A stretch of DNA of 64,000 nt from Enterobacteria phage Kha5h, in sequence record NC_054905.1, one strand, 5' to 3'. The notes beneath the pieces were generated by a model, which saw nothing but the letters and a program-made list of their open reading frames with translations, was not told the DNA's origin and ran no database searches. Made by a program: the position numbers and the translations under genes. Every line of letters begins with the position of its first letter. The first letter of the stretch is position 1. Positions 12,207 to 30,837 of this stretch are shown piece after piece.

Positions 12207-13175
12207 TTATTTCAGAAGAGTAACCTCAGCAATTTCTTCCCAACCGTTTTTGTCGGTCATAATAAAGTCAGCAAGATAAAGTGCAGTACGCAGTGAAACA
12301 TTGCGTAAACGATTAACATTGACTTTCATCCATGATAATGCTTTATAAGTTTCTTCATCAGAAAGACCGCGCTTTTGCATCATGTCAGTTGAAAGAATAA
12401 CATCTTCAACCCTGACCATAATTTCTTCATTAGTGTGAACACCCAAATCTAAATAAACTGAGCGGGAAACTAATGCTTGTAAATGTGGAGCAAGTTTAGT
12501 ACCACGGTCTAATTCGCGGTCAATGTCAACGTTTGTGATAAAAACAATCGTTCCTTTAAATTCAAACTCACGCTCAATGCCTTTTTCTTCTAAGTAAGAA
12601 GATGCAGTGCTCCAGCAGACTTTACGGGTCTCTCCAGTGTCCAGAGCAGCTTTCAAAAGATTAAGAATGTCCATATCAGAGAAAACATCCACATCATCAA
12701 TCAAAAGGACAGAATTCTCTTCACGATTATTCCAGAGCTGTTCATAAAGACCGATACCAGAGATTTTACCGTTAATGCTTTTATATTCAATGTATCCAAT
12801 ATCATTTGCTTTATTTAAAGCTTTATCTAAAGAATACGTTTTACCAATGCCTGCCGCACCAGAGATAATTAATGAACGAATGTTTCCGTTAATAATACCA
12901 TTCGTCATCATTCCCATAACATTAAATCTTTTATTAATGCGGGTTTTCATATCTTCATATGATTCTTTAACTTCTTCAACTTTTACACCATCATATGAAA
13001 TGTCTGATTTGTAAACCCAAACACCGCGACGCTTACCGTCAATTTCAACAAAAACTTTACCATCTCCTTGTGCATCCACCGGAGCATTATCTGGGAACCA
13101 TTCACCTAAGAGCTCAAAAGTTCCAGAGATTTCTTTACCGAAGTAGATACCCTTATTGATAGTTACAGTTTTCAT
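12207..13175 (-). CDS. P-loop NTPase (AAA-like ATPase)
   Basis: Walker A GAAGIGKT and Walker B VLLIDDVD; ATG 13173-13175 behind GGAGAA SD, downstream of an early promoter. Confidence 0.65.
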   Translation of the reverse strand: MKTVTINKGIYFGKEISGTFELLGEWFPDNAPVDAQGDGKVFVEIDGKRRGVWVYKSDISYDGVKVEEVKESYEDMKTRINKRFNVMGMMTNGIINGNIRSLIISGAAGIGKTYSLDKALNKANDIGYIEYKSINGKISGIGLYEQLWNNREENSVLLIDDVDVFSDMDILNLLKAALDTGETRKVCWSTASSYLEEKGIEREFEFKGTIVFITNVDIDRELDRGTKLAPHLQALVSRSVYLDLGVHTNEEIMVRVEDVILSTDMMQKRGLSDEETYKALSWMKVNVNRLRNVSLRTALYLADFIMTDKNGWEEIAEVTLLK

Positions 13176-13209
13176 TTTATTCTCCAAATCCGTATCAGTT
13201 GATAGTTGT

Positions 13210-13239
13210 ATAGTACCATAAAGCTTTATGCCTGTAAAC
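13210..13239 (-). promoter_or_regulatory. T4-type early promoter cassette
   Basis: GTTTAC-N18-TGGTACTAT plus A/T-rich UP region, immediately downstream of a terminator. Confidence 0.6.
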
Positions 13240-13263: not shown

Positions 13264-13290
13264 AAAAAAAAAGGGAGCCCGAAGGCTCCC
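13264..13290 (-). terminator. intrinsic terminator
   Basis: hairpin GGGAGCCTTCGGGCTCCC followed by T9. Confidence 0.75.
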
Positions 13291-13292
13291 TA

Positions 13293-14306
13293 TCATTTAT
13301 AATAACTTCGGTGGTTTTCAAGATAGACCTTCTCAAGGAAGTCATCCCAGAAACTCATGTCTACTGTTTTAGGCATACCGTTCTTAGAAGCTTCAGTAGA
13401 TGCTGCTTCTACTTGATCGACCACATCTTCCAAAAACTCTTGAACTGTTTTAAATGGATGTTTACCCAACTTCACGTCGAGAATAAATGGAGCATCTTGA
13501 AGTGGATAGACTAAGTCACCAGTTTTGTAAATTTCCAATAGTTGGAGTCCACCACGACAAGCATGACTCAAAGCTTTCCAGTCAATACCTTCATTGGCTT
13601 CGGCCTTACGAGCACGTTCACCATATTCAGCATCTAATTTGTTCAGTGACTGCTTAAGCTCAATAAGAGAAAGCGTTGTCTGATATTTACGACCCAACAC
13701 AGTGTAGAACGTTTGTGGGCCTGTTTTCTCATGATTATGGAACACCCATTCACAGAATTCGTTTTCTGGAAGACGATGCTTAATATCTTCAACTTTAGTG
13801 CGACGCTGCTTAATAGAACCATCTTCTTGGTAATCAATCCACTGCTCAGGGATTTGATTAACTACTTTCAATACATCACGTAATGCAGCCAAACGAGAAC
13901 CTTTGACACCGTATTTAGAAGCTTGCTTGCGGACATATCCTAAATATGATTTCATGTTAGTCGTATAAAAACGAGAACGGTTGTCTTGAATAAACTTCCA
14001 CACATCAGGCAAATCAGATTTAACCACTAGTTCAGGTGGAGTGTGAAGCATATCTAATGCTACGGTTTCACCATCTGCTGCTAATTTAAAGAAATATTTA
14101 AGACTGTATAGTTCATGGTCAATATCATCTTTAGTGTTTTTAGATGATGTGTTGTTAGTGTTTTTACTCATATGCTCTTTAACATTTCCGATAAGAATAT
14201 CGCGAGCAGGAGGAACAAAGATTTCTTTAAAATCTACATCAGATTCTGGAGTAGAAGTTCCATAAAGATGACTACCAAAATAGCTTTTCATTACTGTTTT
14301 CATCAT
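13293..14306 (-). CDS. nucleotidyltransferase-fold protein (Pol-beta superfamily-like), function unknown
   Basis: N-terminal GSHLYGTSTPESDVDF (GS-x10-DxD) with downstream VALDML acidic strand; followed by a strong terminator. Confidence 0.55.
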   Translation of the reverse strand: MMKTVMKSYFGSHLYGTSTPESDVDFKEIFVPPARDILIGNVKEHMSKNTNNTSSKNTKDDIDHELYSLKYFFKLAADGETVALDMLHTPPELVVKSDLPDVWKFIQDNRSRFYTTNMKSYLGYVRKQASKYGVKGSRLAALRDVLKVVNQIPEQWIDYQEDGSIKQRRTKVEDIKHRLPENEFCEWVFHNHEKTGPQTFYTVLGRKYQTTLSLIELKQSLNKLDAEYGERARKAEANEGIDWKALSHACRGGLQLLEIYKTGDLVYPLQDAPFILDVKLGKHPFKTVQEFLEDVVDQVEAASTEASKNGMPKTVDMSFWDDFLEKVYLENHRSYYK

Positions 14307-15294: not shown

Positions 15295-15837
15295 TCACTT
15301 TGAAATCATAGTTGGAATGACAGAATCAAGATAAGTCTTTAGTGCAATAGCTTCGTCTTTGGTAAATGTGACAATATGTGCTCGAGAATCATCATTTTGG
15401 CGAACAAGTACGACATCGCCATCTTCATAAGAAGTCTTGACATCCAAAGTCGTAGTATAGTTTGCAGCTACTGGATTAATAATGTTAGCACCGCGATCTT
15501 TAGCCCATTGAAGTTTAGCCTTTTCGGGTGTTTCGGCTGTTTCAGATTCTAAGAATTCTTTCACCTTGGCAACGAATGTTGCCCAATTGTTGATAGAAAG
15601 ACACATAAATTCAGTTTCAATATTACCGCCGTAAAGGCCACGATAAAAACGAACTTGGAGGTCACCTGTAATATTAGTTACACCGGTAACTCCTGAGGGA
15701 GCATAAGATAAAATCGCAGCCAGTTCCATAGGAAGAATAGTAATACTATCGTCTTCCTGCGTCAGAACGTATACATTACCGCGTTTTTCGATAACTAGGT
15801 CACCGAACAAATCAGTTGTTTCAATTACAGCTTTCAT
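15295..15837 (-). CDS. hypothetical protein, paralogue of 14767..15288
   Basis: start moved to ATG 15835-15837 (ORF-track start is TTG). Confidence 0.5.
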   Translation of the reverse strand: MKAVIETTDLFGDLVIEKRGNVYVLTQEDDSITILPMELAAILSYAPSGVTGVTNITGDLQVRFYRGLYGGNIETEFMCLSINNWATFVAKVKEFLESETAETPEKAKLQWAKDRGANIINPVAANYTTTLDVKTSYEDGDVVLVRQNDDSRAHIVTFTKDEAIALKTYLDSVIPTMISK

Positions 15838-15838
15838 A

Positions 15839-16024
15839 TTATTTACCAATTAAAGTTTCAATATAAGAATCAAGATTTACTTTAGCTTCTTCCATAAGAG
15901 TTTTGTATTTAATCTTGTTAGCATGTCCGGAGAAAGCTGATTCATCAATAATTGTTGATGTATGAACAGCTTTACTATACGTCTCAATTAATTCTCTTAA
16001 TTTAAAAGCCTGCTCACTTGTCAT
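15839..16024 (-). CDS. small helical protein (61 aa), member of a small-protein family
   Basis: ORF track; ATG right after an early promoter; N-terminal motif shared with 16189..16362. Confidence 0.45.
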   Translation of the reverse strand: MTSEQAFKLRELIETYSKAVHTSTIIDESAFSGHANKIKYKTLMEEAKVNLDSYIETLIGK

Positions 16025-16156
16025 TACATACTCCTCTGAATCATATCAATAATGTTGTTTACCAAATTATAAGTAAACATTGGGTAATTATATTGAATCA
16101 TCACATACACAACAAACAAAACTTTCATTCTCTTCTCCTTGGCAGTTGACAAGATT

Positions 16157-16186
16157 ACTATACCATAACCTTGCCAACTTGTAAAC
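16157..16186 (-). promoter_or_regulatory. T4-type early promoter (GTTTAC-N18-TGG-TATAGT)
   Basis: minus-strand match ahead of the 15839..13293 operon. Confidence 0.55.
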
Positions 16187-16548: not shown

Positions 16549-16788
16549 TTAAACTCTCGTATTATGATCGATAATTTCATCAAGAAACATATCTAACGCT
16601 TCTAAAGCATTATCAACTTTAGCTTCAAGTTCATCAATGCCTTTATTTGCAATGCCTGATGAAAACCAAGCAAAGTCACTAAGTTCCTCATCTGCTTTAC
16701 GAATTAAAGCTACCAATTCCTTAATTTTATCCGCTTGTTCGATACTAATCATTATTCCACCACATATGAAAGAGAGAATATTGCACAT
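16549..16788 (-). CDS. small helical protein (start uncertain), member of a small-protein family
   Basis: ORF track; likely true start at the internal [13 protein letters not shown]. Confidence 0.4.
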
Positions 16789-16940
16789 GCCATGTGAGTT
16801 GCAACTTCATCACACATATTATAACGTTTCTTAAGAAATTCTACAAGTTCTTCACTAGTAACTTCATCCATGTCGACGAAAAAATCACCATTAATGATGA
16901 CGTAGATATTTCCTTCTTGATTGAGTGCTTCAATTTTCAT
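16752..16940 (-). CDS. hypothetical small protein (62 aa)
   Basis: ORF-track N-terminus is promoter read-through from TTG; start moved to the first in-frame Met (MKIEALN...). Confidence 0.4.
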
Positions 16941-16968
16941 GATGTTCTCCTCTTTATCCGATAGTTGT

Positions 16969-16999
16969 ATAGTATCACAGCTCAAACGGAAAGTAAACC
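16969..16999 (-). promoter_or_regulatory. T4-type early promoter cassette
   Basis: GTTTAC-N18-TGATACTAT-ACAACTATC; a terminator lies just upstream. Confidence 0.55.
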
Positions 17000-30006: not shown

Positions 30007-30083
<77 letters not shown>

Positions 30084-30087
30084 TATT

Positions 30088-30162
30088 TGGCGGACATGCA
30101 TGGATTCGAACCATGGACCAATTGATTAACAGTCAACTGCTCTACCACTGAGCTACACATCC
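30088..30162 (-). tRNA. tRNA-Asn (anticodon GUU)
   Basis: hand-folded: D-arm GCTC-AGTGGTA-GAGC, anticodon loop CTGTTAA, T-loop TTCGAAT, encoded CCA. Confidence 0.75.
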
Positions 30163-30166
30163 AAAT

Positions 30167-30253
30167 TGGTGGGGAGTGATGGAGTCGAACCACCCGAGTC
30201 GCAATGACAATGGATTTACAGTCCACACCGCTACCTCTACGGGATAACTCCCC
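30167..30253 (-). tRNA. tRNA-Tyr (anticodon GUA), type II
   Basis: hand-folded: perfect acceptor GGGGAGT/ACTCCCC, anticodon loop CTGTAAA, long variable arm, encoded CCA. Confidence 0.8.
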
Positions 30254-30265
30254 TAATTCATAATT

Positions 30266-30340
30266 TGGTGGCCCTGGGTGGAATTGAACCACCATCTGGC
30301 GATTATGAGTCGCTTGCTTGAACCTTCCAGCTACAGGGCC
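30266..30340 (-). tRNA. tRNA-Ile (anticodon CAU, presumably lysidine-modified) or tRNA-Met
   Basis: hand-folded: anticodon stem-loop GCGA-CTCATAA-TCGC as in Ile2-type tRNAs; acceptor GGCCCTG/CAGGGCC. Confidence 0.75.
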
Positions 30341-30341
30341 T

Positions 30342-30417
30342 TGGTGCTGATTGACGGAATCGAACCGCCGACCTTCTCATTACAAGTGAGTTGCTCTACC
30401 TACTGAGCTAAATCAGC
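30342..30417 (-). tRNA. tRNA-Thr (anticodon UGU)
   Basis: hand-folded: anticodon loop CTTGTAA, T-loop TTCGATT, encoded CCA. Confidence 0.8.
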
Positions 30418-30422
30418 AAAAC

Positions 30423-30512
30423 TGGCGGAGGCGATAGGATTTGAACCTATGAGTCGCCGGAGCGACTGCCGGTTTTCAAGACCGGTGCATTAAACCACTC
30501 TGCCACGCCTCC
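30423..30512 (-). tRNA. tRNA-Ser (anticodon UGA), type II
   Basis: hand-folded: anticodon loop CTTGAAA, long variable arm, T-loop TTCAAAT, encoded CCA. Confidence 0.8.
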
Positions 30513-30514
30513 AG

Positions 30515-30588
30515 TCTCCATACAAGGATTTGAACCTTGGACCTCCTGATCCCAAATCAGGCGCTCTACCAAACTGAGCTACACGGAG
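30515..30588 (-). tRNA. tRNA-Pro (anticodon UGG)
   Basis: hand-folded: anticodon loop TTTGGGA, T-loop TTCAAAT; CCA not encoded. Confidence 0.75.
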
Positions 30589-30597
30589 TAATTAAAT

Positions 30598-30671
<74 letters not shown>

Positions 30672-30676
30672 AAATT

Positions 30677-30763
30677 TGGTGCGAGAAGTGGGACTCGAAC
30701 CCACAAGGAAATCATTCCGCAGCATTTTAAGTGCTGTGCCTTTACCAATTTGACCATTCTCGC
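30677..30763 (-). tRNA. tRNA-Leu (anticodon UAA), type II
   Basis: hand-folded: anticodon loop CTTAAAA, long variable arm, T-loop TTCGAGT, encoded CCA. Confidence 0.8.
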
Positions 30764-30764
30764 G

Positions 30765-30837
30765 CTGGGAATAAAGGACTCGAACCTTTGCATCTAGCAG
30801 TCAAAGTGCTATGCCTTACCAACTTGGCTAATTCCCA
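30765..30837 (-). tRNA. tRNA-Gln (anticodon UUG)
   Basis: hand-folded: acceptor TGGGAAT/ATTCCCA, anticodon loop CTTTGAC, T-loop TTCGAGT; CCA not fully encoded. Confidence 0.75.

Follow-up and report, generated by a model that had tools for sequence, protein, structure and literature searches.

Phage Kha5h carries on its minus strand, at the end of a run of small genes, a gene for a protein with nucleotidyltransferase (NTase) features. The locus raises the question of which reaction this protein would carry out and on which substrate. The initial annotation had suggested an enzyme that makes or mimics a nucleotide signal, or that modifies RNA or protein. We analysed the gene in the window (the whole stretch of 64,000 nucleotides from sequence record NC_054905.1, to which coordinates refer unless the locus of a relative is named) together with its relatives.

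Gene identity and start codon

ORF calling confirmed a 337-aa open reading frame on the minus strand. It opens with a tandem ATG-ATG, and both of these codons overlap the TGA stop of the upstream gene. The second ATG (14303), with a Shine-Dalgarno-like AAGG 7 nt before it, is the start used by RefSeq and in T4, and the protein probably begins there, at a length of 336 aa. Two sequences singled out in the initial annotation as marks of this 337-aa protein, GSHLYGTSTPESDVDF and a later VALDML, are both there, at aa 11–26 and aa 82–87.

13293–14306, minus strand: NrdC.11 coding sequence, 97% identical to T4 NrdC.11 (NP_049709)

The identity of 97% to T4 NP_049709.1 extends over the full length of the protein. 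Judged by its sequence, the gene is the well conserved nrdC.11 of T4-like phages. The T4 protein is named 'nucleotidyltransferase' in RefSeq, a name that was on record beforehand. The stretch is 99% identical to phage GiZh across 5 kb (Tequatrovirus). Homologues of NrdC.11 were found in 1516 phage records, and of the 1.8 billion representatives in a library with clustering at 50% identity, 3506 matched at E≤1e-3.

Database names around this gene need care. The label 'thioredoxin', propagated from nrdC, is wrongly attached to NrdC.11 and to further nrdC.x genes in many GenBank and UniRef entries, and one entry names NrdC.11 'HNH homing endonuclease'. A similar propagation error has given MobD.4 or MobD.5 (Kha5h 16752–16985) the label 'molybdopterin-guanine dinucleotide biosynthesis protein MobD'. 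The T4 reference nrdC.11 (NC_000866; 2436–3446 of locus L088) has an X, from an ambiguous base, at residue 102.

NrdC.11 closes an early-type transcription unit

The genes and signals of the transcription unit, in the direction of transcription, were as follows.

16157–16185, minus strand: early-type sigma-70 promoter, TTTACA-17-TATAGT with a TG extension, from promoter scoring
16024–16128, minus strand: MobD.2-like 34-aa ORF, the first past the promoter
15839–16024, minus strand: 61-aa DUF7438 protein (Pfam)
15295–15849, minus strand: y05I/MobD.1 paralogue 1, 184 aa
14767–15288, minus strand: y05I/MobD.1 paralogue 2, 173 aa
14303–14764, minus strand: 153-aa predicted membrane protein, its stop codon overlapping the NrdC.11 start
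13272–13291, minus strand: intrinsic terminator with an 8-bp GC-rich stem, TTCG loop and T8, also annotated in GiZh

The promoter, GTTTACA-N17-TGGTATAGT at 16185–16157 on the minus strand, had the top score in the region (10/12 plus an extended -10), and its extended -10 is typical of T4 early promoters. The hairpin and T8 at 13291–13272 directly follow the NrdC.11 stop codon and close the unit. These two signals are the early promoter near 16157–16186 and the terminator at 13264–13290 described in the initial annotation. Its operon contents were also recovered in full: a small protein (61 aa), two paralogues and a membrane protein (153 aa). Upstream of the 16185 promoter, as far as 17014, lie small co-directional genes that no terminator separates from it, and read-through transcription of the operon from beyond this promoter is therefore possible.

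T4 NrdC.11 and its Straboviridae orthologues are likewise encoded between nrdC.10 and the mobD region. The mobD.1 gene is single in T4 but duplicated in Kha5h, where the two tandem y05I paralogues (Pfam PF24449 and PF24448) are 29% identical to each other. In T4 the mobD homing endonuclease is followed by nrdC.11, whereas Kha5h has the 153-aa membrane protein in the mobD slot, a replacement that resembles a cassette swap at the site of a homing endonuclease. The membrane protein matches PHROG 944, 'moron/host takeover'. Pfam labels the y05I/MobD.1 family 'putative transcription factor'. A Pfam scan of the operon partners of NrdC.11 gave no hint of RNA repair.

The next gene downstream, nrdC.10 (12207–13187, minus strand), encodes a 326-aa P-loop ATPase. 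Its matches to AAA_14, AAA_22 and nSTAND3 were all sub-threshold, and PADLOC gave none. It has its own early-type promoter (13210–13238, minus strand) directly past the NrdC.11 terminator and is kept near NrdC.11 in 33 T4-like loci. Elsewhere in the window lies a cluster of 10 tRNA genes (30007–30837, minus strand: Arg, Asn, Tyr, Met/Ile-CAU, Thr, Ser, Pro, Gly, Leu and Gln). T4 has 8 tRNA genes, which makes Asn and Tyr additional in Kha5h.

NrdC.11 belongs to the RlaP family

The domains and motifs of the protein, given as the positions that encode them, were the following.

13902–14306, minus strand: N-terminal Pol-beta-type NTase domain, aa 1–135 (Pfam PF10127 RlaP match)
14232–14276, minus strand: GS...DxD motif, G11 S12 ... 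D23 x D25, the NTP- and metal-binding signature (alignment)
14112–14126, minus strand: acidic strand D61-I-D63-H-E65 (strand 62–68 in the AlphaFold2 model, and alignment)
14046–14063, minus strand: VALDML, aa 82–87, with conserved D/E85, a predicted helix (AlphaFold2 model and alignment)
13680–13844, minus strand: beta-rich insert, aa 155–209, sequence-variable, inside the helical half and outside the Pfam match (aa 7–135)
13296–13667, minus strand: C-terminal helical domain, aa 214–337, HEPN-like fold (AlphaFold2 model)
13554–13583, minus strand: invariant block D242-W-K-A-x-S-H248-A-x-R251 of the helical domain (alignment)

NrdC.11 matched Pfam PF10127 (RlaP, RNA-ligase-associating Polβ), a family that Pfam describes as 'RNA repair pathway DNA polymerase beta family', with 43.9 bits against a gathering cut-off of 23 (E=3e-11, aa 7–135). 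Most NrdC.11 homologues carry a precomputed match to PF10127, and PHROG 388 'nucleotidyltransferase' was matched end to end. Conservation was read from an alignment of 127 sequences reaching down to ~23% identity. Residues L14, G16, S22, D23, D25, Y124, R231, D242, H248, R251 and P268 were invariant in it, and G11 and S12 were kept in 126 of the 127 sequences. The motif is not a chance occurrence, because the GS...DxD pattern is conserved down to ~23% identity and the PF10127 match is so far above threshold. The signature of the Pol-beta superfamily that had been proposed from the letters alone was thereby upheld: a family profile was matched, the GS, D23 and D25 are conserved and an NTase core was modelled. 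NrdC.11 is almost certainly an RlaP-family NTase, and it lies within a longer, phage-rich RlaP subfamily that bears a beta-rich insert.

The third acidic residue was placed differently from the initial annotation, which had taken VALDML for the third acidic strand. The AlphaFold2 model puts aa 81–87 in a helix, and the acidic strand is DDIDHE (aa 60–65). Positions D61, D63 and E65 are conserved at 93–95% in the 127-sequence alignment; position 63 is acidic (D or E) in 126 of the sequences and position 85 in all. Kha5h and most relatives have D61, whereas T4 NrdC.11 has N at this position, and D61 is therefore dispensable. An hhalign comparison of the family profile with one canonical RlaP sequence covered the NTase core only, at a probability of 24%, and is usable for residue equivalence, though it does not establish homology of the C-terminal parts. 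In that low-probability alignment D63 stands opposite the Asp of the 'LDL' strand and D85 opposite a Glu of the next helix. Given this alignment, the Asn61 of T4 and the acidic residue in 126 of 127 sequences, D63 is probably the third catalytic carboxylate.

Two other family assignments were tried and rejected. For MNT/MntA/AbiEii, NTP_transf_2 reached 13.5 bits against a threshold of 21, and an NCBIfam scan gave nothing significant, its sole match being MntA at 13.2 bits against 60. No HEPN or AbiEi partner adjoins the gene, whose neighbours are the membrane protein and the nrdC.10 P-loop ATPase. For the CCA-adding, poly(A) and Cid1 enzymes there was no PolyA_pol or PAP match in Pfam, and Foldseek listed Cid1 at no better than E=0.33, with a TM of 0.11.

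Predicted fold and the signalling enzymes

The AlphaFold2 model, computed on the 127-sequence alignment, was confident (pLDDT 89.9, pTM 0.74) and comprises an NTase α/β core, the beta-rich insert and a HEPN-like helical domain. The core runs from a strand at 3–10 through the GS turn and a short helix to strands at 24–31 (D23xD25 at its start), 45–49 and 62–68; the last bears D63 and E65, with D61 just ahead of it. After these strands come helices, the insert at 155–209 and the helical C-terminal half (214–336), ending in a terminal helix at 317–336. The predicted α/β core sustains the NTase-fold call of the initial annotation.

The best structural neighbours of the model were HalB, 3c18 and aminoglycoside NTases. 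Matches in Foldseek were weak, and the same NTases took the top ranks. Since the structural lists give NTases and include no cGAS, OAS or CD-NTase in either of them, the NTase fold stands and the likeness to OAS, cGAS and CD-NTases that had been drawn from motif spacing falls. PDB sequence searches with the protein and with the 127-sequence profile gave no match; the structure of a Pseudomonas fluorescens RlaP (PfRlaP) was evidently outside the set searched. Among BFVD models the matches were baculovirus HE65 proteins and giant-virus NTases (Klosneuvirus, Terrestrivirus, Yasminevirus), so the fold family reaches eukaryotic viruses.

One alternative that these results bear on is a second-messenger synthase or mimic, similar to CD-NTases, cGAS or OAS, that acts on CBASS, Thoeris or Pycsar signalling. 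The points that speak for it are the generic Pol-beta GS...DxD signature, which is all that NrdC.11 has in common with those enzymes, and the early-type promoter and terminator signals. CD-NTases, cGAS and OAS differ from NrdC.11 in domain architecture, and NrdC.11 is without signalling partners. Pfam gave no SMODS/CD-NTase, Mab-21 or OAS match at E≤1, a PADLOC scan that included the CBASS cyclase models gave none, and there was no structural match. We rejected the CD-NTase/OAS assignment and consider a signalling role very improbable. Of the activities first suggested for this protein, the NTase holds, through PF10127, while the nucleotide signal is unsupported.

The structural neighbours suggest another alternative, an oligodeoxyadenylate synthase like HalB. 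NrdC.11 would then be the phage's version of the Hailong NTase, keeping the HalA effector inhibited and serving as an anti-Hailong decoy. HalB and the aminoglycoside NTases (ANT(4'), ANT(3'')(9), LinB) are 10–16% identical to NrdC.11 and share no sequence family with it; the aminoglycoside enzymes use small molecules and HalB uses dATP, whereas NrdC.11 has no resistance or defence context. With this low identity, no family membership and no defence context, the HalB-like reading was rejected, and the chance that it is correct appears to be minimal.

Gene neighbourhoods of the relatives

We fetched 158 phage loci around homologues and called their genes. After removal of duplicates 136 remained, 57 from T4-like and 79 from other phages. 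Neighbourhoods of ±10 kb were searched with iterated profiles, for which the seeds were a phage RtcB and, from T4, Pnkp, Rnl1 and Rnl2. In the 57 T4-like loci there was no pnk, rnl or RtcB-type gene within 10 kb, and the Kha5h window had none. T4 encodes Pnkp, Rnl1 and Rnl2 far from nrdC.11, and GiZh encodes Pnkp and Rnl1. Among the other phages, 24 of 79 loci had a gene for RtcB, Rnl1, Rnl2 or a Pnkp domain within ±10 kb. In 19 of the 79 the RNA-repair gene was at most 3 kb away (binomial 9e-7, compared with a uniform distribution across ±10 kb). Of the 28 RNA-repair genes in the 24 loci, 25 were on the same strand as the NTase gene. The association with RNA-repair genes thus holds only in the more distant relatives of NrdC.11, not in T4-like loci.

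Unbiased clustering of the neighbours in the 79 non-T4-like loci gave an HD-domain protein of ~170 aa as the commonest. Its gene lies directly downstream of the NTase gene in 18 of these loci and within three genes in 3 more, 21 in total. Three layouts recurred: the NTase directly preceded by a stand-alone HAD_PNKP phosphatase or kinase domain; NTase-HD followed by RtcB 3–6 genes downstream; and Rnl2-x-Pnkp-x-NTase. At least one partner, HD or RNA-repair, was present in 38 of the 79. Compact putative RNA-repair cassettes were seen in metagenomic phages (L102, 9555–10927; L158, 2521–3894; L097, 9956–13680; L006, 7001–8475; L007, 3962–7948). Bacterial CCA-adding enzymes also combine an NTase with HD, an architecture of which the NTase-HD pair is reminiscent. 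The HAD_PNKP-RlaP, RlaP-HD and RlaP...RtcB arrangements are new context for the phage subfamily.

Homologues were also placed in two bacterial loci. A plasmid of Asticcacaulis sp. DW145 (L170, 1077–6790) carries a Hen1-Pnkp-NTase-NTase operon. Its first NTase is of the NrdC.11 type (327 aa, 35% identical, full-length) and its second is a canonical RlaP (269 aa, 236 bits). The Deferribacter homologue, encoded four genes downstream of RtcB, matches PF10127 over the whole length (positions 2–246) and bridges the two types. The side-by-side placement in one Hen1-Pnkp operon suggests that the two RlaP subfamilies are not redundant.

Comparison with characterised RlaPs

The RlaPs of P. fluorescens and P. 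aeruginosa have been characterised (Carruthers, Fatma and Huang, bioRxiv 2025, December preprint). PfRlaP and PaRlaP, the sole members for which this has been shown, extend RNA by 1–2 NMPs at 3'-OH ends but not at 3'-phosphates, and single-stranded RNA is among their substrates. The 5' half of a cleaved-tRNA mimic was favoured over the acceptor-bearing 3' half, and RNA was the only E. coli macromolecule labelled by the bacterial RlaPs. The crystal structure of PfRlaP has an N-terminal NTase and a C-terminal helical domain with a terminal helix packed back onto the NTase. RlaP was proposed to restore, prior to ligation, nucleotides lost to 'smart' ribotoxins such as RloC, and T4 NrdC.11 was placed in cluster 5 of the family network with 'unknown function' (Carruthers et al. 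2025). The RNA-repair idea has also been stated for the family by Burroughs and Aravind (2016; cited in Carruthers et al. 2025). The distribution of RlaP in jumbo phages mirrors that of RNA ligases; these RlaPs were predicted to replace RloC-removed nucleotides ahead of ligation, and the CCA-adding enzyme is another Pol-beta NTase that phages use for RNA repair (Iyer et al. 2021, Viruses 13:63).

NrdC.11 shares with the Pseudomonas RlaPs the Pfam family and the GS...DxD motif with a third Asp, probably D63, on a strand; the AlphaFold2 model predicts for it an NTase core followed by a helical half and a terminal helix. Unlike them, it is phage-borne, belongs to network cluster 5 rather than 1a and in T4-like phages is not beside rtcB or rtcA. 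The canonical RlaPs scanned for comparison (252 and 269 aa) are shorter; NrdC.11 has the extra beta-rich insert at aa 155–209 and a divergent C-terminal half outside the Pfam alignment. The jumbo-phage RlaPs are likewise phage-encoded, but Kha5h is a T4-like phage of ~167 kb, and linkage to ligases was seen only in distant, mostly smaller metagenomic contigs.

A proposed role in rebuilding RNA 3' ends

On balance we favour, with some reserve, a role for NrdC.11 in rebuilding or repairing RNA 3' ends alongside phage Pnkp and RNA ligase. Early in infection NrdC.11, with D23, D25, D63 and two metal ions as its active site, would extend a damaged RNA at its 3'-OH by one or two NMPs taken from NTPs. 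The likeliest substrate would be the 5' half of a tRNA whose anticodon loop had been cut by a nucleotide-removing host anticodon nuclease of the RloC type. Phage Pnkp would first strip the 2',3'-cyclic or 3'-phosphate. Once the end had been rebuilt, Rnl1 or Rnl2 would seal it to give a full-length tRNA. The classical Pnkp-Rnl1 counter-defence of T4 would in this way be extended to lesions that lose nucleotides. The region nrdC.11-mobD.3 is dispensable on laboratory hosts, which fits an accessory counter-defence role, though it is not specific to that role.

The same chemistry could serve tRNA 3'-end (CCA) repair or maturation, with the 1–2 terminal nucleotides replaced after trimming by an exonuclease or toxin and no part played in anticodon-loop breaks. 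Characterised RlaPs add 1–2 nt to any RNA 3'-OH, single-stranded RNA included, Kha5h has its own cluster of 10 tRNA genes, and the CCA-adding enzyme is likewise a Pol-beta NTase that phages use in RNA repair. Pfam gave no PolyA_pol or CCA-adding match, however, and in the relatives the linkage is to RtcB, Rnl1, Rnl2 and enzymes of end healing. Internal breaks require such enzymes, whereas repair of the 3' terminus does not. RlaP also prefers the 5' half of a cleaved-tRNA mimic, not the half that bears the acceptor. Maturation of T4 tRNAs depends on the host cca enzyme, which also counts against this alternative, and we regard it as unlikely.

The target might instead be a protein: an AMPylase similar to MNT/MntA or DrrA would inactivate a host toxin (e.g. 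a HEPN RNase) or another protein early in infection. Matches to the families of these enzymes were far below their thresholds, whereas PF10127 was above its own. In the work on bacterial RlaPs only RNA among E. coli macromolecules was labelled, and the neighbourhoods of the homologues point to RNA ends. Protein modification is accordingly improbable. For all four alternatives (signalling, HalB-like synthesis, CCA repair and protein nucleotidylylation) there is no positive evidence beyond generic fold similarity.

Implications for phage RNA repair

NrdC.11 is a known gene of a known family. It does not represent a new kind of system, because the RNA-repair idea has been published for the family and the name nucleotidyltransferase was on record for the gene. 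What it offers is a clear candidate for experiments in a model phage. The activity of NrdC.11-type proteins may differ from that of canonical RlaPs, given that they have the insert and share an operon with a canonical RlaP, and their specificity may be a different one.

A more speculative extension, which we put forward tentatively, is that the 'long' NrdC.11-type RlaPs form a functionally distinct subfamily, not redundant with canonical RlaP, that in T4-like phages would be the missing third component of tRNA repair, rebuilding the RloC-excised wobble nucleotide so that a functional tRNA could be regenerated by Pnkp and Rnl1. The Pnkp-Rnl1 pathway of T4 is the founding example of RNA repair as an antiviral counter-defence, and RloC has been proposed to beat it by excising the wobble nucleotide. 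If the extension is true, phages would be able to answer a lesion against which their repair has long been considered powerless. Should NrdC.11 restore the wobble nucleotide, it would close, in the best-studied phage, an arms-race loop of more than 15 years' standing.
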